A stretch of 64,000 bases of DNA from an uncultured Chloroflexia bacterium. Its GTDB lineage: Bacteria > Chloroflexota > Dehalococcoidia > Dehalococcoidales > Fen-1064. Of this stretch, positions 25,378-32,422 are shown piece after piece; position 1 is the first letter of the stretch, and every line of letters begins with the position of its first letter. Made by a program: the position numbers and the translations under genes. Location: assembly GCA_963772985.1 (NCBI GenBank), contig CAVYZP010000036.1, positions 18,401-82,400 on the forward strand. The letters are read 5' to 3'. The notes under the pieces were generated by a model that worked only from the letters and a program-made list of their open reading frames with translations, was not told the DNA's origin and did not search any database.

Positions 25378-26160
25378 ATGAAAAGAGCTTATGCAGAAAT
25401 ACCTGAGGGACAAATGCTTTATCGGTTTGAAGGGGACGGAAAGCCGGTTTTGCTGCTACATGCCGGGGTGACTTCTTCCCTTGAATTTAAAGATGTGATC
25501 CCCTTTTTATCTAAAACGTATCGGGCGATTGCCCCGGACTTTATGGGTAACGGCGATTCAGATCCGGCTCCCCGTGCTTATGATTGCTTTGACCATGCCC
25601 GGACCATGATTAGCTTTATGGATGCGCTAGGTATCAAAAAGGCGAATGTCGTAGGACAGCATGTCGGCGGCAAAATAGGCGTCGAGATGGCCGTAAACTG
25701 GCCGGAACGAGTGAGCAGTCTGGTACTTTCTTCTATCGGGTATTATGAAAGCGAAGGTAAAAATATTAAGGATCCGCCGAATTTCAGAAGCAGAGTGGAA
25801 ATAAAGAAAGATGGTTCACATCTAATGGAGTGGTGGGAACGCTCCGCGCTCTGGGGCCATCCACTGGATATCACTCATGACAGGGCCGTAGAATACATTA
25901 AAGCAGGGCCGAGAGGTGAGGAAATACATTGGGCGGGGCGCAATTATGACCCCAGACCCAGATTGCCCCTGGTTCATTGCCCGACATTGGTACTCTCTGC
26001 CACCCGCGACCCCTTCTGTGTCGTCGCAGAAAATGTGCACAAACTGGTTCCCGGCAGTAAGCTGAATATTATTAAGAACGGTCCAATCGACATCGACCGC
26101 GTCTGGCCGAAGGAATTTGCTGAGGCGGTCCTTGAGTTTTTAAATTCAATACCCGGATAA
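25378..26160 (+). CDS. alpha/beta-hydrolase-fold protein, non-canonical (G-Q-H-V-G elbow), paralog 1
   Basis: 260 aa. VLLLHAGVTSS..., ANVVGQHVGGKIG, LSATRDPF. The C-terminal NGPID replaces the usual GH. Confidence 0.8.
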   Translation: MKRAYAEIPEGQMLYRFEGDGKPVLLLHAGVTSSLEFKDVIPFLSKTYRAIAPDFMGNGDSDPAPRAYDCFDHARTMISFMDALGIKKANVVGQHVGGKIGVEMAVNWPERVSSLVLSSIGYYESEGKNIKDPPNFRSRVEIKKDGSHLMEWWERSALWGHPLDITHDRAVEYIKAGPRGEEIHWAGRNYDPRPRLPLVHCPTLVLSATRDPFCVVAENVHKLVPGSKLNIIKNGPIDIDRVWPKEFAEAVLEFLNSIPG

Positions 26161-26203
26161 TTTCTCACTCTGGTTAAAAATAGAAAGAAAGAAGAGAGGG
26201 AAA

Positions 26204-26986
26204 ATGAAAAGAGCCTACGCAGATATCCCGGAAGGACAAATCCATTACCGGGTAGAAGGAAAAGGGGAAACGGTCCTTTTACTCCATGCCGGAGTAACAT
26301 CATCTCTTGAATACATTAAAGTCATCCCTGTCCTATCTAAAACCTATTGCGTAATTGCTCCTGATTTTCTCGGCAACGGCGATTCCGACCCGGCGCCGTT
26401 TGCCTACGATATAATCGACCATGCCCGCACCATGATTCATTTCATGGATAATCTCGGCATCAAAAAAGCGGCTGTCGCAGGCCAGCATGTCGGCGGTAAG
26501 ATAGGTTTGGAAATGGCCGTGACCTGGCCGGAACGCGTCAGTAAACTTGTCTTGTCTTCACCAAACTACCCGGAAGAAGAGAAAGAAAAAACCTTCAAAG
26601 ACCCACCGAATTTTATGGGCCGGGTAGAAATAATGGCGGACGGTTCACACTTGATGGAGTGGTGGCGGCGTTCTGCCTTATGGGGCCATCCTTTGGATAT
26701 AACAAACGACAGGACACTGGAATACATCAAAGCCGGCCCCAGAGGCGAAGAAATTCATTGGGCCGGCGGTGCTTACGACCCCCGTCCCAAGTTGCCGTTA
26801 GTGCGTTGCCCGACCCTGGTACTCTCGGCGACTCATGATCCATTCTGCGGCATGGCGGAGCCCGTTCATAAACTGGTGCCGGGGAGTGAGCTGAAAATAA
26901 TTGAAAACGGTCCGATTGACATCGACCGCGTCTGGCCCAAAGAGTTCGCTGAGGCAGTCATAAATTTCCTGAATAGCGCGAAATGA
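26204..26986 (+). CDS. alpha/beta-hydrolase-fold protein, non-canonical, paralog 2 (tandem duplicate)
   Basis: 260 aa. Roughly three quarters of positions are identical to paralog 1 by eye. Same GQHVGG elbow. Confidence 0.8.
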   Translation: MKRAYADIPEGQIHYRVEGKGETVLLLHAGVTSSLEYIKVIPVLSKTYCVIAPDFLGNGDSDPAPFAYDIIDHARTMIHFMDNLGIKKAAVAGQHVGGKIGLEMAVTWPERVSKLVLSSPNYPEEEKEKTFKDPPNFMGRVEIMADGSHLMEWWRRSALWGHPLDITNDRTLEYIKAGPRGEEIHWAGGAYDPRPKLPLVRCPTLVLSATHDPFCGMAEPVHKLVPGSELKIIENGPIDIDRVWPKEFAEAVINFLNSAK

Positions 26987-27054
26987 TCGCATATTGTCTG
27001 TTTTTATAACATTAAAGTTAACAAATCTAATAATCTTTTTGAGGAGCTTTTACA

Positions 27055-30504: not shown

Positions 30505-30526
30505 CGGGACGCAGTTACGGGGAAAA

Positions 30527-31312
30527 ATGAAAAGAGCTTTTGCTGATATTCCGGAAGGACAAATGCATTATCGGTTTCAAGGCAACGGCGAGCCGGTCTT
30601 ATTATTGCATCCGGGGGTCGGCTCATCAGATGCGTTTACAAATACGATGCCGTATATGTCCGGAAAGTATCTGGTCATCGCGCCTGATTTTCTGGGCAAC
30701 GGAGATTCCGACCCTGCCCTGTTCGAGTATACGATGCTGGATCATGCCCGCAGCCTTATCAGTTTCATGGACAGTCTGGGAATTAAGAAAGCCAATGTTG
30801 TTGGGCATCACACCGGCGCTAAAGTTGCGGCGGAGCTTGCCATCAACCGGCCCGAGCGTGTGAATAAACTTGTGCTATCTGCCATCGGATACTGGGAAGC
30901 GGCGGCAAACATTGAAAAGAATGAACCGGATAACTTTACCAGTCGCGTCGAGATAAAACCGGACGGTTCACACCTTATGGAATGGTGGCGGCGGGCAGCC
31001 ATGTGGCACGACCCGCTTGATATCATCGAAGCAAGCGTCATCGAATACATCAAAGCGGGGCCGCGGGGCGAGGAAATACATTGGACAGCGCGCGCTTATG
31101 ACACTAAGGGCCGGTTACCTTTGATCAAGTGCCCGACCCTAGTGCTTTCGGGAGCGTCGGGACTGTTCCATTCCGCGGCTGATAATGTCCGGAAACTTGT
31201 CCCCGGCAGCAAACTTGTCGTAATCGAAAATGGGCCTCCCCGGATGGAACGCACCATGCCCCAAGAGTTTGCCGCGGCCATACTGAACTTTTTAGAAAGC
31301 CCGAAAAACTAA
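30527..31312 (+). CDS. alpha/beta-hydrolase-fold protein, non-canonical (G-H-H-T-G elbow), paralog 3
   Basis: 261 aa, collinear with paralogs 1 and 2. ANVVGHHTGAKVA, with NGPPRMERTMPQEF at the position of the catalytic His. Confidence 0.8.
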   Translation: MKRAFADIPEGQMHYRFQGNGEPVLLLHPGVGSSDAFTNTMPYMSGKYLVIAPDFLGNGDSDPALFEYTMLDHARSLISFMDSLGIKKANVVGHHTGAKVAAELAINRPERVNKLVLSAIGYWEAAANIEKNEPDNFTSRVEIKPDGSHLMEWWRRAAMWHDPLDIIEASVIEYIKAGPRGEEIHWTARAYDTKGRLPLIKCPTLVLSGASGLFHSAADNVRKLVPGSKLVVIENGPPRMERTMPQEFAAAILNFLESPKN

Positions 31313-31336
31313 TAATTTCTTGAGGAGGAAATTCCG

Positions 31337-32422
31337 GTGAAAGCAGTGATTGTCAAAGAAGCGGAAGTCATCGAATTGCAGGATGTTCCCGAACCGCAAA
31401 CTCGTCCGGATGAAATCAAAGTTAAAATTGCTTACTGCGGCATTTGCGGCACCGACGTGAAAATCATTGAAGGTAAAACATTCGGCAAAGGGTTCAAGAC
31501 TGAGGGCGCCATCGGTTGGCCGAAAAAACCGGCGCCGCCGCGCGACGACGTCAGAATTATGGGACAGGAGATGCGCGACGGACTTAAGGTTTTAGGGCAT
31601 GAAGCTTCCGGGACCATAGTGGAGATAGGTAAAGACATCAAGGGGAATTTTAAAATCGGGCATCCGGTCGCCATGAATTTTCGCAGCGCCTGCGGCGTTT
31701 GTTATTACTGCACGAAATCGATGGCGCAATTCTGTGAGCGGCGTTTCCCCATCTCCGGCGCAATGGCGGAATATTCCGTTTATCGGGAAAATACCGTTTT
31801 TCCCCTGCCGGCTAATTTGTCGCTGGAGGAAGGGGCATTCCTGGAGCCGACAGCCATCGCCGTGCGGGCATTGGATATAGCGAAAATCAATATCGGGGAT
31901 ACCGTTATCATTACCGGCGGAGGGCCCATCGGTTTACTGGTTTTACAACTGGCTATCAAATCTGGAGCTTCGAAAGTTTTGCTATCGACGCGGTCGCCCG
32001 AAAAAAGAAATCTGGCCAAACAGCTCGGTGCCGATGTCGTTGTCGACCCGGTTCATGAAGACCTGCTGGCAATATCGAACGAATTTACTGACGGACGGGG
32101 TTACAGTGTCTGTTTCGAAGTCAGCGGAAACACTGATGTAGCGAGGCAACTGATTTTACTGGCGGAATCCGGCGGGACTATCGTCTGGGTGGGAACATAT
32201 CCTCCGAATTTCGACGTGGGCGTGCCGATTTATTATATGCACTCCAGGGACCTCACCATCCGTGATGTGCGGTCTTCTCCGTACGCCTTCCCTAAGGCGC
32301 TGCAGATGCTGCCCAATCTGAACTTAAAGCCATTGATTACAGTTTATCCGCTGGCCGACGTGCTGCAGGCATTCGCGGCGCAGAAAACCGGTAAAAATGT
32401 GAAGATAATGCTCAAAATGTAG
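31337..32422 (+). CDS. Zn-dependent alcohol/polyol dehydrogenase, paralog 3 (longest loop insertion)
   Basis: GICGTD, GHEASG, CGVCYYCTKSMAQFC, ITGGGPIGLL. GTG start after GAGGAGG. Confidence 0.85.
   Translation: MKAVIVKEAEVIELQDVPEPQTRPDEIKVKIAYCGICGTDVKIIEGKTFGKGFKTEGAIGWPKKPAPPRDDVRIMGQEMRDGLKVLGHEASGTIVEIGKDIKGNFKIGHPVAMNFRSACGVCYYCTKSMAQFCERRFPISGAMAEYSVYRENTVFPLPANLSLEEGAFLEPTAIAVRALDIAKINIGDTVIITGGGPIGLLVLQLAIKSGASKVLLSTRSPEKRNLAKQLGADVVVDPVHEDLLAISNEFTDGRGYSVCFEVSGNTDVARQLILLAESGGTIVWVGTYPPNFDVGVPIYYMHSRDLTIRDVRSSPYAFPKALQMLPNLNLKPLITVYPLADVLQAFAAQKTGKNVKIMLKM

Follow-up and report, generated by a model that had tools for sequence, protein, structure and literature searches.

Alpha/beta-hydrolase-fold proteins with histidine at the nucleophile position in a candidate catabolic operon of a Dehalococcoidia bacterium

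The Seven-Gene Cluster

Positions 25378-32422 of the window, a 64,000-nucleotide stretch from a peat/fen Dehalococcoidia bacterium, hold seven + strand open reading frames (ORFs; Table 1). A sequence-only reading had placed a seven-gene, one-strand cluster here, and both its coordinates and its gene order hold exactly. The Pfam domain calls give alpha/beta-hydrolase (ABH) 1, ABH2, a three-domain OYE, Zn-ADH, VOC, ABH3, Zn-ADH. ABH1, ABH2 and ABH3 match Abhydrolase_1 at 72.7, 77.4 and 75.0 bits, respectively (cut-off 25.8), and the other Pfam matches are Oxidored_FMN with Pyr_redox_2, ADH_N with ADH_zinc_N (twice) and Glyoxalase. Intergenic gaps are 15-68 bp, an operon-like spacing, and a Shine-Dalgarno-like sequence precedes every ORF (for ABH1, GGAGGAG 5 nt upstream of the ATG). 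An Rfam scan of the non-coding region upstream of ABH1 returned no family at the gathering score, and the region has 14 weak consensus promoter matches, where chance alone predicts 8.6 +/- 3.2. None of the seven genes encodes a regulator, and we found no CoA ligase, CoA transferase or transporter among them.

Table 1. Features of the operon and its borders, in window positions.
Feature	Position	Strand	Description
katG	22583-24790	-	divergent from ABH1
Non-coding region	24791..25377		587 bp, between divergent katG and ABH1; presumed operon promoter/regulatory region
ABH1	25378..26160	+	260 aa; His95 + Asp211 type
ABH1 GQHVG	25654-25668		elbow
ABH1 DGSHLMEWW	25810-25836		cap
ABH1 PRGEEIHW	25909-25932		
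ABH1 LSATRDPFC	25993-26019		acid loop
ABH1 NGP	26077-26085		
ABH2	26204..26986	+	260 aa; His + Asp type as ABH1; 79% identity to ABH1
ABH2 GQHVG	26480-26494		elbow
ABH2 LSATHDPFC	26822-26848		acid loop
ABH2 NGP	26906-26914		
Flavoenzyme	27055..29010	+	651 aa, three-domain; 2-enoate-reductase subfamily of OYEs (Pfam, motifs)
First Zn-ADH	29026..30072	+	348 aa; Zn-dependent medium-chain dehydrogenase, polyol/threonine/butanediol-dehydrogenase type (domains, motifs)
VOC protein	30121..30504	+	127 aa; glyoxalase/epimerase fold (Pfam Glyoxalase, 57.3 bits)
ABH3	30527..31312	+	261 aa; His94-His95 + His214 type; 62% identity to ABH1
ABH3 GHHTG	30803-30817		elbow
ABH3 LSGASGLFH	31145-31171		
ABH3 NGP	31229-31237		
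Second Zn-ADH	31337..32422	+	361 aa, GTG start; Zn-dependent medium-chain dehydrogenase, full Zn motifs
tRNA gene	32495-32570	-	operon end 72 nt before

Partner Enzymes

The flavoenzyme consists of an FMN domain (Oxidored_FMN), a linker with four Cys (346, 348, 354 and 367) and an FAD/NAD(P)H domain with GGGPGG at 396 and GGGYVG at 519; its Pfam scores are 218 and 116 bits. It had been read as an OYE-type ene-reductase. The family is right, but this is not a classical OYE: the FMN/4-Cys/FAD layout is that of the 2,4-dienoyl-CoA/2-naphthoyl-CoA reductase type, and its closest relatives of solved structure are 2-naphthoyl-CoA reductase (6qkg, 1.4e-103) and FadH (1ps9, 2.8e-79). The cysteines are spaced C-x-C-x5-C-x12-C, unlike those of FadH (C-x2-C-x3-C-x11-C). 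The three-domain architecture is common to the 2-enoate-reductase subfamily, i.e., FadH, 2-naphthoyl-CoA reductase, BaiCD, bilirubin reductase and the clostridial enoate reductases (PMC11759058). The operon enzyme scores 350 bits against NCR and 462.7 bits against the BaiCD model (cut-off 825), and it falls below every equivalog cut-off.

The first Zn-ADH carries GICGSD (36), GHE (75), the structural Zn site CGGCYYCSNKKAHFC (107) and GGGPIG (182), and the second is 62% identical to it. The best solved relative of the VOC protein is methylmalonyl-CoA epimerase (3e-8). CoA thioesters are the substrates of the best characterized relatives of both the flavoenzyme and the VOC protein.

Active Sites of the ABH Proteins

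The translated sequences bear out the motifs first read from the DNA. The nucleophile elbow is G-Q-H-V-G in ABH1 and ABH2 and G-H-H-T-G in ABH3, the oxyanion motif is LLH-A-G-V in the first two and LLH-P-G-V in the third, and the His loop of all three reads N-G-P. The acid-loop Asp is kept in ABH1 (SATRDPF) and ABH2 (SATHDPF), as had been claimed; the corresponding loop of ABH3 is SGASGLF. All three paralogs share His95 and N-G-P, but their sites are not equivalent: ABH3 has no acid at 211 and possesses His214 instead. ABH3 also gives a borderline Ndr match (23.2 bits; cut-off 23.3), and up to six conserved His surround its predicted pocket.

The central claim of the sequence-only reading, that His replaces the nucleophile and the triad His is missing, agrees with both the HMM alignments and an AlphaFold2 model. 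By phmmer, His95 aligns with the Asp106 nucleophile of DhaA/HaloTag. In full-length alignments of a 40-sequence family profile to the esterases 5egn and 6eb3/8v16, the catalytic Ser corresponds to H95, the acid Asp to D211 and the catalytic His to I237, directly after N-G-P. The model (pLDDT 87.5, pTM 0.88) places H95 between strand 89-94 and helix 96-107, i.e., at the nucleophile elbow, and D211 after strand 203-208; there is no His in its beta8 loop (after strand 228-232). None of the three placements (DhaA, profile or AlphaFold2) finds another Ser, Cys or Asp in the place of a nucleophile.

Comparison with Known Alpha/Beta-Hydrolases

The nearest folds by Foldseek are epoxide hydrolases, fluoroacetate and haloalkane dehalogenases, enol-lactonases and C-C hydrolases. 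The Asp-nucleophile branch, comprising haloalkane dehalogenases (DhaA/LinB), fluoroacetate dehalogenase and epoxide hydrolases (Cif, Alp1U), is among the top neighbors, especially of the wider family. Haloalkane dehalogenases are the best sequence matches of the N-terminal half (NCBIfam PRK03592, 1e-23; DhaA, 2e-16). The ABH family has in common with this branch the motifs L-H-x-x-x-T-S-S and D-x-x-G-x-G-x-S-D and a helical cap with polar His/Trp residues. It differs in having His for Asp, Val/Thr for the following Trp and no beta8-loop His, and its scores against the family models are only 72-84 bits where the cut-off is 241. The covalent alkyl-enzyme mechanism of the branch is impossible in ABH1, ABH2 and ABH3.

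The Ser-His-Asp enzymes, a group of meta-cleavage-product (C-C) hydrolases, the 3-oxoadipate enol-lactonase PcaD and esterases/perhydrolases related to them (DxnB2 4lxg, CumD, 2xua, Est1 6eb3, PFE), align over the full length of the profile (E 1e-19 to 1e-25) with TM-scores of 0.74-0.82. Size and cap topology match, and the acid Asp of ABH1 and ABH2 sits at the same beta7-loop position. However, the sequences are no more than 24% identical, His stands in place of Ser, the catalytic His is gone, and scores against the PcaD model are 66-75 bits (cut-off 256).

Nucleophile-free mechanistic analogs exist within the fold: HOD/QDO dioxygenases, with a His-Asp dyad as general base, MKS1-type carboxy-lyases and hydroxynitrile lyases (PMC10548524, PMC11878206). 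Their base is the beta8-loop His, whereas the ABH family carries its His on the elbow, and we detected no specific sequence relationship to these three groups. Inactive ABH proteins (NDRG/Ndr, neuroligins, DPP6/10, DUF687, DUF3530) have likewise lost the canonical triad. The ABH family differs from them in that its replacement residues are strongly conserved and co-vary, and its genes lie in bacterial catabolic operons. We found no counterpart with a solved structure or a published description.

Family Conservation, Selection and Genomic Context

A profile search at E<=1e-30 recovered 468 clusters (50% identity) from Chloroflexota, Alphaproteobacteria and other phyla. The conserved set is H28, D54, D62, H95-T96, E103, D145, S147, H148, W153 and D211, with Ser33 and Ser34 also highly conserved, while the triad-His column is random. 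In 123 close sequences the elbow is His in 103 and N-G-P is present in 104. We retrieved 269 family proteins and used 232 near-full-length domains for elbow ancestry; the pairing of His95 with Asp211 appears to be the ancestral state, within which elbows with Phe, Ser, Asn and Leu are nested as derived forms. The His elbow is thus not universal. The near-constant hallmark of the family is two cap motifs, D-G-S-H..W and E-x-H. Relatives at about 60% identity with a Phe, Leu or Asn elbow keep them, so the elbow His is not essential to the role of the cap motifs.

An acid at 211 goes with His95 (181/207 vs 26/55; odds ratio 7.8, p 2e-9, kinship ignored). Asp/Glu211 and His214 hardly ever occur together (1/89 vs 32/34; p 5e-26, again ignoring kinship, with about two independent subfamilies behind the statistic). 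Since the two residues almost exclude each other, the ABH3 site is a different one from that of ABH1 and ABH2, and the pattern is the one expected if a functional partner residue had relocated.

Against orthologs, counting only comparisons with unsaturated dS (about 1), dN/dS of the three ABH genes is 0.036-0.067 (ABH1 vs its L006 ortholog, 0.050; ABH2, 0.036-0.067; ABH3, 0.037-0.067), the same range as the flanking OYE and ADH genes (0.043-0.078). The VOC gene is the most constrained of the module (0.006-0.010; 98-99% identity to orthologs). The substitutions are a family trait and not decay, in accord with the sequence-only reading. The family is large, strongly conserved and uncharacterized, and it probably performs a different chemistry.

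The module ABHx(2-4)-OYE-ADH-VOC-ABH-ADH occurs in three different flanking contexts at 86-92% identity. The proposed link to a reductase and dehydrogenases thus holds for the clade, but it does not extend to the wider family, which is not tied to these genes. A three-domain OYE is also near family members at loci L003, L022 and L050. Neighborhoods outside the clade are heterogeneous: distant members neighbor family III CoA-transferases, PrpD, BKACE and carboxylate/Liv/TRAP/Tct/MFS importers, and others an SBP_bac_5 importer and Mo/W enzymes with AFOR. Across loci, neighbors include KatG, Usp, PadR, FMN_red, Flavin_Reduct, DoxX/MauE, nitroreductase, GST, aldo-keto reductase, VOC and OYE. An array at L001 has the elbows F, S, H and F, Leu-type copies adjoin canonical Ser/His ABH genes, and Phe-type copies lie between SnoaL_4 genes. 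Natural two-domain fusions are modeled as a single rigid body (pTM 0.92). Only 16/45 family genes in non-redundant loci adjoin a paralog, and dimers of paralogs are thus optional.

Proposed Function and Alternatives

We tentatively propose, with somewhat less than even confidence in the explanation as a whole, that ABH1, ABH2 and ABH3 are functional non-nucleophilic acid-base enzymes of anaerobic catabolism. The clade would derive from an epoxide-hydrolase/dehalogenase/enol-lactonase-like branch of the fold, its covalent nucleophile-His-acid triad having become a non-nucleophilic acid-base site. The elbow His would be partnered by the beta7-loop Asp211 in ABH1 and ABH2 and by His214, a helical turn beyond that position, in ABH3, with the conserved polar cap residues Asp145, Ser147, His148, Trp153 and His184 opposite. 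It may occupy the space vacated by the beta8-loop His and act as general base/acid, activating water or abstracting a proton, while the cap residues and the conserved Arg 155, 179 and 241 could bind and polarize an anionic carbonyl substrate (a carboxylate or CoA thioester). The outcome could be a one-step hydration, lactone/thioester/beta-dicarbonyl cleavage, isomerization or decarboxylation, with no acyl-enzyme intermediate. Catalysis by a dyad alone has precedent in cofactor-independent dioxygenases and carboxy-lyases (PMC10548524, PMC11878206). The two site types would serve two different non-redox steps between those of the Fe-S flavin ene-reductase, the two secondary-alcohol/ketone dehydrogenases and the VOC epimerase/isomerase. 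The pathway would take up an unsaturated or alicyclic acid and degrade it anaerobically. A dimer of ABH1 and ABH2 is possible.

Alternatively, the ABH proteins could be non-catalytic ligand-binding, scaffolding or regulatory subunits that serve one another or the operon's redox enzymes, with the invariant cap motifs as a binding or oligomerization surface. Nucleophile and triad His are both lost, the elbow varies in close relatives while the cap does not, site types are mixed within arrays, the Leu- and Phe-type copies have the neighbors described above, fusions and tandem pairs are common, and there are well-known ABH families without catalytic activity (PMC11878206). We nevertheless consider this unlikely, although it deserves serious weight. 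His95, Asp211, Asp145 and His148 are kept in at least 468 diverged clusters, whereas the triad-His column varies freely, and the compensatory Asp211/His214 swap is the behavior of an active site, not of a scaffold. Family genes at the sampled loci are mostly single-copy without a fixed protein partner, and dN/dS is as low as in the flanking enzymes.

It is also doubtful that the operon is protective rather than catabolic. In this reading humic peat would be the source of reactive electrophiles, quinones and aldehydes, and the ABH proteins would detoxify adducts or lactones. The KatG, Usp, nitroreductase, GST and other redox neighbors listed above would fit such a role, and the operon would presumably then resemble nemA-gloA or the Bacillus MhqR regulon. 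However, its reductase is of the oxygen-sensitive Fe-S/FAD type akin to acyl-CoA reductases rather than a NemA-type OYE, it lacks an internal regulator, and substrate catabolism is suggested by what lies around family members: importers, CoA-transferases, PrpD, BKACE, and Mo/W enzymes with AFOR.

Conserved His/Asp residues are unusually concentrated in three places, namely the elbow, the beginning of cap helix 1 (D-G-S-H) and cap helix 3 (E-x-H), and the surroundings of the predicted ABH3 pocket are rich in His. This could instead indicate a divalent metal on His95, His148 and His184, perhaps with Asp145/Asp211 as further ligands (and, in ABH3, His94/His214). As a metallo-hydrolase, hydratase or isomerase, the protein would use it to activate water or to bind an enolate. 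We find this improbable: about 10% of members have Phe/Tyr at H148, and about 15% have Tyr/Phe at H184. We know of no ABH-fold metalloenzyme active site. Nor is a metal site among the active-site types of a review of the superfamily (PMC11878206).

A permuted covalent hydrolase, in which Ser147 of the cap, Ser33/34 just past the oxyanion loop or Ser118 is the nucleophile, His95 the base and Asp211 the acid, is very improbable. Ser33, Ser34 and Ser147 are well conserved and a His-Asp pair could activate a Ser, but no such residue, nor any Cys or Asp, takes a nucleophile-like position in the alignments or the structure model, and Ser147 is Ala/Gly/Thr in about 12% of His-type members. Ser33/34 are probably structural, since in the DhaA alignment they are part of the H-G-x-x-T-S-S helix-capping motif common to haloalkane dehalogenases. 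Lastly, decaying gene copies might account for the loss of two canonical catalytic residues out of three, but pseudogenization is rejected with near certainty by intact reading frames with ribosome-binding sites, identical residues across hundreds of clusters that span several phyla, and dN/dS of 0.04-0.07 at dS of about 1.

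Catalytic Positions of the ABH Paralogs

The three alpha/beta-hydrolase-fold (ABH) paralogs of the operon, ABH1, ABH2 and ABH3 (260, 260 and 261 aa), match Abhydrolase_1 (72.7, 77.4 and 75.0 bits; cut-off 25.8) and Abhydrolase_6 (34.5-41.5 bits; cut-off 26.3) in Pfam. ABH1 shares 79% identity with ABH2 and 62% with ABH3. The fold predicted by AlphaFold2 (pLDDT 87.5, pTM 0.88) is, in DSSP order, a helix-flanked beta-sheet with a helical cap after beta6, and Foldseek TM-scores were 0.73-0.82 against esterases, C-C hydrolases and perhydrolases.

The ABH fold ranks among the most thoroughly studied enzyme scaffolds, and the textbook rule for it is Ser, Cys or Asp at the nucleophile elbow and an invariant His after beta8. 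Neither feature is found in ABH1-3. The beta5-alphaC elbow holds His95 in all three paralogs, and the column of the esterase catalytic His is occupied by Ile237 (ABH1 and ABH2) or Pro (ABH3), with no His in residues 233-241. In a phmmer search of PDB sequences, ABH1 ...NVVGQHVGGKIG... pairs with DhaA/HaloTag ...VLVIHDWGSALG..., which places His95 under the nucleophile Asp106. Full-length alignment of a 40-member family profile to the esterases 5egn and 6eb3/8v16 put His95 on the Ser, Asp211 on the acid Asp, and Ile237, the next residue after N-G-P, on the catalytic His. The AlphaFold2 model has His95 between strand 89-94 and helix 96-107, Asp211 after strand 203-208, and a loop after strand 228-232 that lacks His. 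The acid after beta7 is Asp211 in ABH1 and ABH2; ABH3 has Gly211 with His214 in the loop S-G-A-S-G-L-F-H. The sequence-only reading had claimed a His at the nucleophile position in three paralogs, a triad His missing at the N-G-P site and an acid-loop Asp kept in the first two paralogs, and all three claims stand.

None of the seven operon proteins reached an NCBIfam equivalog cut-off. All fell far below, so no equivalog yields a name or a substrate. The scores of ABH1-3 were 71.7-83.9 (PRK03592) and 58-74 bits (PRK03204) versus cut-offs of 241 and 466 for haloalkane dehalogenase models, 66.6-75.2 versus 255.85 bits for the 3-oxoadipate enol-lactonase PcaD, and 41-50 versus 462 bits for the MCP C-C hydrolase BphD. 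The H-D-W of haloalkane dehalogenases, which comprises the Asp nucleophile and a halide-binding Trp, is replaced by Q/H-H-V/T in ABH1-3. PcaD and MCP C-C hydrolases use a Ser-His-Asp triad, whereas ABH1-3 have neither Ser nor His at the triad positions. Cofactor-independent dioxygenases and carboxy-lyases rely on a beta8-loop His base hydrogen bonded to the acid. That His is absent in ABH1-3, and we propose, from co-variation only, that a His95-Asp211 dyad may stand in place of the beta8-loop His dyad.

By fold, the family comes closest to epoxide hydrolases, fluoroacetate and haloalkane dehalogenases, enol-lactonases and C-C hydrolases. This fits descent from a branch with caps that already bear a leaving-group-polarising His, Trp or Tyr. 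By profile alignment and Foldseek, no solved structure was more than 24% identical to the family.

The His-Elbow Family

A word-indexed search returned 415 homologs (E ≤ 1e-5). Each of the best 120 has 59% identity or more and is either unannotated or has a generic name. Distant members have only the database names 'alpha/beta hydrolase' or 'pimeloyl-ACP methyl ester carboxylesterase'. When 1.84 billion cluster representatives were searched exhaustively with a profile, 468 matched at E ≤ 1e-30 and 23,794, ordinary hydrolases included, at E ≤ 1e-10. We define the His-elbow clade by H28, H95 followed by T or V96, E103, D145-x-S147-H148, W153, H184, either D211 or H214, and the lack of a beta8-loop His; ABH1, ABH2 and ABH3 each show every one of these features. 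Distant representatives conserve H28, S33, S34, D54, D62, H/Y73, H95-T96, E103, D145, S147, H148, W153, H184 and D211, and among them the position of the canonical triad His holds essentially random residues.

Among the 123 closest sequences the elbow residue is His in 103, Phe in 10, Ser in 7 and Asn in 3, and N-G-P occurs in 104. In average-linkage (UPGMA) clustering, which is cruder than neighbor-joining, the Phe, Ser and Asn types fall inside His-dominated groups, so His95 with Asp211 looks ancestral. An acid at position 211 is present in 181 of 207 sequences with His95 versus 26 of 55 with another elbow residue (odds ratio 7.8, p = 2e-9), and His214 in 32 of 34 sequences without an acid at 211 versus 1 of 89 with one (p = 5e-26); both tests are uncorrected for phylogeny and the 211/214 test draws on about two subfamilies. 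The site type of ABH3 (His94-His95 with His214) has 36 type-specific residues. Taken at face value, the residue patterns suggest that ABH1 and ABH2 (His95 with Asp211) and ABH3 would have two distinct, internally consistent sites. Three proteins about 60% identical to ABH1 and nested in the His-type clade (P0081, P0090 and P0094) have Ser95, Glu211 and His238, apparently a regained canonical-looking set whose His is displaced by one residue from its usual column.

The sequence-only reading held that the substitutions are not decay, and selection agrees. Against orthologs in related MAGs (L006, L007 and L012), and with dS between about 0.8 and 2.4, dN/dS is 0.050 (ABH1), 0.036-0.067 (ABH2) and 0.037-0.067 (ABH3); ABH1 against L007 yielded no ratio owing to saturation of the synonymous sites. 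These values lie in the range of the flanking reductase and dehydrogenases (0.043-0.078; the VOC gene has 0.006-0.010) and exclude pseudogenisation.

Many family representatives are about 560 aa long and consist of two family domains, each with His95, Asp145 and His148; in Alphaproteobacteria such fusions occur as overlapping pairs. The model of one fusion (P0163; pTM 0.92, pLDDT 91.8) predicts a fixed domain pair. A structure search found no solved two-domain counterpart, since TMq was at most 0.40 for every match. A putative dimer of ABH1 with ABH2 is plausible. Only 16 of 45 family genes in non-redundant loci adjoin a paralog, so the pairing of different paralogs is optional, and the idea of obligate heteromers is weakened.

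The Operon and Its Partner Enzymes

An ORF check and Pfam recovered the seven genes of the operon in the order and at the lengths first read from the DNA (see table). The gaps between them are 43, 68, 15, 48, 22 and 24 bp, and a GGAGG-like sequence precedes every start codon. In Rfam the whole window matched two tRNAs only, with no family match or riboswitch upstream of the operon; scans for promoter and terminator consensus sequences did not rise usefully above shuffled background.

Features of the window: the operon and its surroundings
Feature	Position	Strand	Remark
Multi-PAS histidine kinase	10417-13356	-	979 aa; upstream neighbor
LuxR/GerE-type regulator	18575-19087	-	upstream neighbor
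SBP_bac_5 solute-binding protein	19481-21190	-	orphan; upstream neighbor
D-2-hydroxyacid dehydrogenase	21300-22328	-	upstream neighbor
Catalase-peroxidase katG	22583-24790	-	divergent; with a 587-bp non-coding region, upstream boundary of operon
Operon	25378-32422	+	seven ORFs
ABH1	25378-26160	+
ABH2	26204-26986	+
Reductase	27055-29010	+	651 aa
ADH	29026-30072	+	348 aa
VOC	30121-30504	+	127 aa
ABH3	30527-31312	+
ADH2	31337-32422	+	361 aa
tRNA	32495-32570	-	downstream boundary of operon; Rfam 65-67 bits for the two tRNAs
Ferredoxin/POR-like genes	32621-36400	-	five genes
POR gamma-like ORF	35794-36495	-	GTG start
tRNA	36408-36480	-
Low-GC patch	~54000-62000		GC 0.33-0.37 versus about 0.50
IS21-type IstB	56177-56902	-	low-GC patch
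Transposase-like ORF	56896-58422	-	weak Mu-transposase C-terminal match just under Pfam cut-off
IS1-like fragment	58413-59219		low-GC patch
SocA/Panacea antitoxin	60210-60665	-	low-GC patch

The third gene had been read as an OYE-type ene-reductase. Its protein does contain an Oxidored_FMN domain (218.3 bits), but it also contains Pyr_redox_2 (116.4 bits), four linker Cys (346, 348, 354 and 367) and two G-x-G-x-x-G dinucleotide-binding motifs. It is a three-domain member of the 2-enoate-reductase (2-ER) subfamily (PMC11759058) and no classical OYE. The best solved relatives are 2-naphthoyl-CoA reductase (NCR; 1.4e-103) and 2,4-dienoyl-CoA reductase (FadH; 2.8e-79). The protein falls under the NCBIfam cut-offs for BaiCD (462.7 versus 825), mycofactocin OYE (451.9 versus 793) and bilirubin reductase (414.7 versus 750). 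The canonical Cys spacing of 2,4-dienoyl-CoA reductase is C-x2-C-x3-C-x11-C; residues 346-367 of the operon reductase read C-x-C-x5-C-x12-C. Heterogeneity of the Cys motif in the 2-ER subfamily was reported in 2025 (PMC11759058).

Both alcohol dehydrogenase-like proteins (ADHs) belong to the Zn-dependent medium-chain dehydrogenases, match ADH_N and ADH_zinc_N, have complete Zn motifs (GICG[ST]D, GHE and the structural site C-x2-C-x2-C-x7-C) together with GGGPIG, and resemble polyol, threonine and butanediol dehydrogenases. In both, about 20-30 extra residues are inserted between GICG[ST]D, which holds the catalytic Cys, and GHE (for example ...KPAYREGAIGGPAKTTPPRPGVRIM...); in Pfam, the 104 positions of ADH_N extend over 123-135 residues of these proteins, and most NCBIfam models break ADH2 into two stretches. 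The VOC protein matches Pfam Glyoxalase. Its best solved relative is methylmalonyl-CoA epimerase (3e-8), and it scores 31.2 versus the 114.95 bits required by the epimerase model TIGR03081. The partner enzymes lean to acyl-CoA or keto-acid chemistry; these are leanings, not assignments.

Gene Neighborhoods

Fen and soil metagenomes are the source of the nearest relatives, which are Dehalococcoidia/Dehalococcoidales genomes. One of them, the fen Dehalococcoidia genome L012, has adjoining ferredoxin and pyruvate:ferredoxin oxidoreductase (POR) genes 90-98% identical to those of the window (ferredoxin, PorB-like and PorA-like genes compared) and is thus essentially the same organism. The module ABHx(2-4)-reductase-ADH-VOC-ABH-ADH recurs, 86-92% identical, in three different flanking contexts. 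In the window it lies between katG and the tRNA, ferredoxin and POR genes; in loci L040-43 it has MR_MLE upstream and AAA+VWA downstream; in L044-47 it is preceded by a Pat-like 902-aa gene and followed by a methyltransferase, and four ABH copies stand in front. The module therefore behaves as a unit in the window's clade. The proposed link to ene-reductase and dehydrogenases holds for that clade but not for the family, which has other neighbors elsewhere. No universal partner gene of the family was found in the sampled loci; the contig of P0164 is too short to have contributed to them.

The OYE/ADH/VOC neighbors are clade-specific, and CoA-transferase III, SnoaL_4, Liv ABC, Mo/W enzymes and Tct/RraA are each limited to a subset of the loci. 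A three-domain OYE is also near family members in L003, L022 and a distant Chloroflexota locus (L050). Outside the clade, four-gene ABH arrays lie beside Liv-type ABC importers and flavin reductases. Four-gene arrays can mix active-site types, as in L001 (8334-11605; order Phe, Ser, His, Phe) and L044 (8368-11577). An alphaproteobacterial locus (L034, 5359-14051) carries back-to-back pairs of two-domain fusions, with eight family domains and one single-domain copy within 10 kb. In L022, Mo/W oxidoreductase, ferredoxin and aldehyde:ferredoxin oxidoreductase genes are near the ABH gene, and the stop of the last overlaps the ABH start. Other neighbors are Tct transporters, RraA-like aldolases, a VOC protein and an SGL lactonase.

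An ABH gene sandwiched between two SnoaL_4 genes (about 220 aa) is contiguous in L003 (17312-19529) and L015 (4702-6799); the ABH protein of these sandwiches is always of the Phe type. In L013 (10001-11460) the downstream SnoaL_4 overlaps the ABH gene by 4 bp and the second (6969-7631) is ~2.4 kb upstream. In L003, L013 and L015 a Liv-type ABC importer is encoded within about 1-3 kb of the module, and a DoxX/MauE-like membrane protein separates the two.

Loci of Geopsychrobacteraceae, Oscillospiraceae, Acholeplasmataceae and other groups have family III CoA-transferases upstream and PrpD, BKACE and amidohydrolase genes nearby. The family member in these loci has Leu at the elbow, and the canonical Ser/His ABH that adjoins it bears an SCP2-like extension. 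This pairing was seen in L025 (1974-13130), L027 (522-3832), L024 and L032, all with a family III CoA-transferase upstream (directly so in L024 and L032); L025 additionally has PrpD, BKACE, amidohydrolase and an MFS transporter. The N-terminal domain of about 130 aa, on or ahead of the canonical ABH, has no Pfam match and is SCP2-like by eye. What unites the family's neighborhoods is catabolism, in anaerobes, of imported compounds that are carboxylated or CoA-activated.

Proposed Mechanism and Significance

The analysis shows that the canonical covalent machinery is missing, that conserved, selected and co-varying residues replace it, and that the genes are organised together with redox enzymes. 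The different chemistry suggested by the sequence-only reading is a plausible hypothesis. We tentatively favor non-covalent acid-base enzymes in which the elbow His would be the base. The elbow His would take the space of the missing beta8-loop His, pair with Asp211 (His214 in ABH3) and act as general base/acid. An anionic carbonyl substrate would be bound and polarised by cap residues Asp145, Ser147, His148, Trp153 and His184 and by Arg155, Arg179 and Arg241, and a single step would follow: hydration, cleavage of a ring, thioester or beta-dicarbonyl, isomerisation or decarboxylation.

The foremost rival reading is that the proteins bind or scaffold without catalysis; the Phe, Leu and Asn elbow variants favor it in that they still keep the cap motifs. 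We judge this reading rather unlikely. It is unlikely, too, that the operon is an electrophile/quinone defence set and not a catabolic pathway. There is only a small chance that the His cluster makes a metal site. A permuted covalent triad is very improbable; HMM and structural alignment placed no Ser, Asp or Cys nucleophile with a triad His elsewhere in these sequences.

A superfamily-wide classification of 2024 lists S-D/E-H, D-D/E-H and C-D-H triads and D/E-H dyads; it describes the beta8 His as 'totally conserved' and makes no mention of an elbow His (PMC11878206). ABH enzymes with a dyad only, e.g., cofactor-independent dioxygenases, use the canonical His (PMC10548524). Our literature search turned up neither a His-elbow ABH nor the operon; uncatalogued work outside the searchable literature is possible. 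The fold and general setting are familiar, and the active-site solution has not been described before in the literature searched. With at least 468 clusters (50% identity) in several phyla, strong purifying selection and a consistent swap of partner residues, the His-elbow family contradicts the textbook rule at scale. Uncultured Dehalococcoidia, a group abundant in peat, fen and sediments, carry it in expanded form, as arrays and fusions.

If catalytic, the His-elbow proteins would be a new use of the ABH fold and would also flag hitherto unrecognised steps in anaerobic carbon turnover. A wider proposal, less likely than not, is a new ABH catalytic class, with the base moved to the elbow beside the beta7 Asp or His214, or within a metal site. 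Such a class might allow cofactor-free, non-covalent hydration or C-C/C-O cleavage where Dehalococcoidia of peat and sediment, and other bacteria, break down unsaturated or alicyclic (CoA-activated) acids anaerobically; paralog arrays and two-domain fusions would offer different site variants. Catalytic or not, the annotations 'pimeloyl-ACP methyl ester carboxylesterase' and 'alpha/beta hydrolase' are misleading for these proteins, which are small, soluble and easily tested.

Surroundings of the Operon

Downstream of the operon, a 239-aa 2Fe-2S/4Fe-4S ferredoxin-like protein is encoded next to four genes that look like POR subunits; the Pfam basis is the ferredoxin only. The set indicates an anaerobic lifestyle. 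The second tRNA overlaps the 5′ end of the POR gamma-like ORF, whose true start is probably downstream of the tRNA. KatG adjoins the operon despite this anaerobic-looking set; a functional link was set aside, as katG is also present in L003 but 8 kb off, and the module is found elsewhere without it. Homologs of the orphan SBP_bac_5 protein occur near family arrays in L001, L007/L044 and L013 (53-57% identical) and in L018 (37%). The low-GC patch with its transposase-related genes is probably a mobile-element insertion zone.
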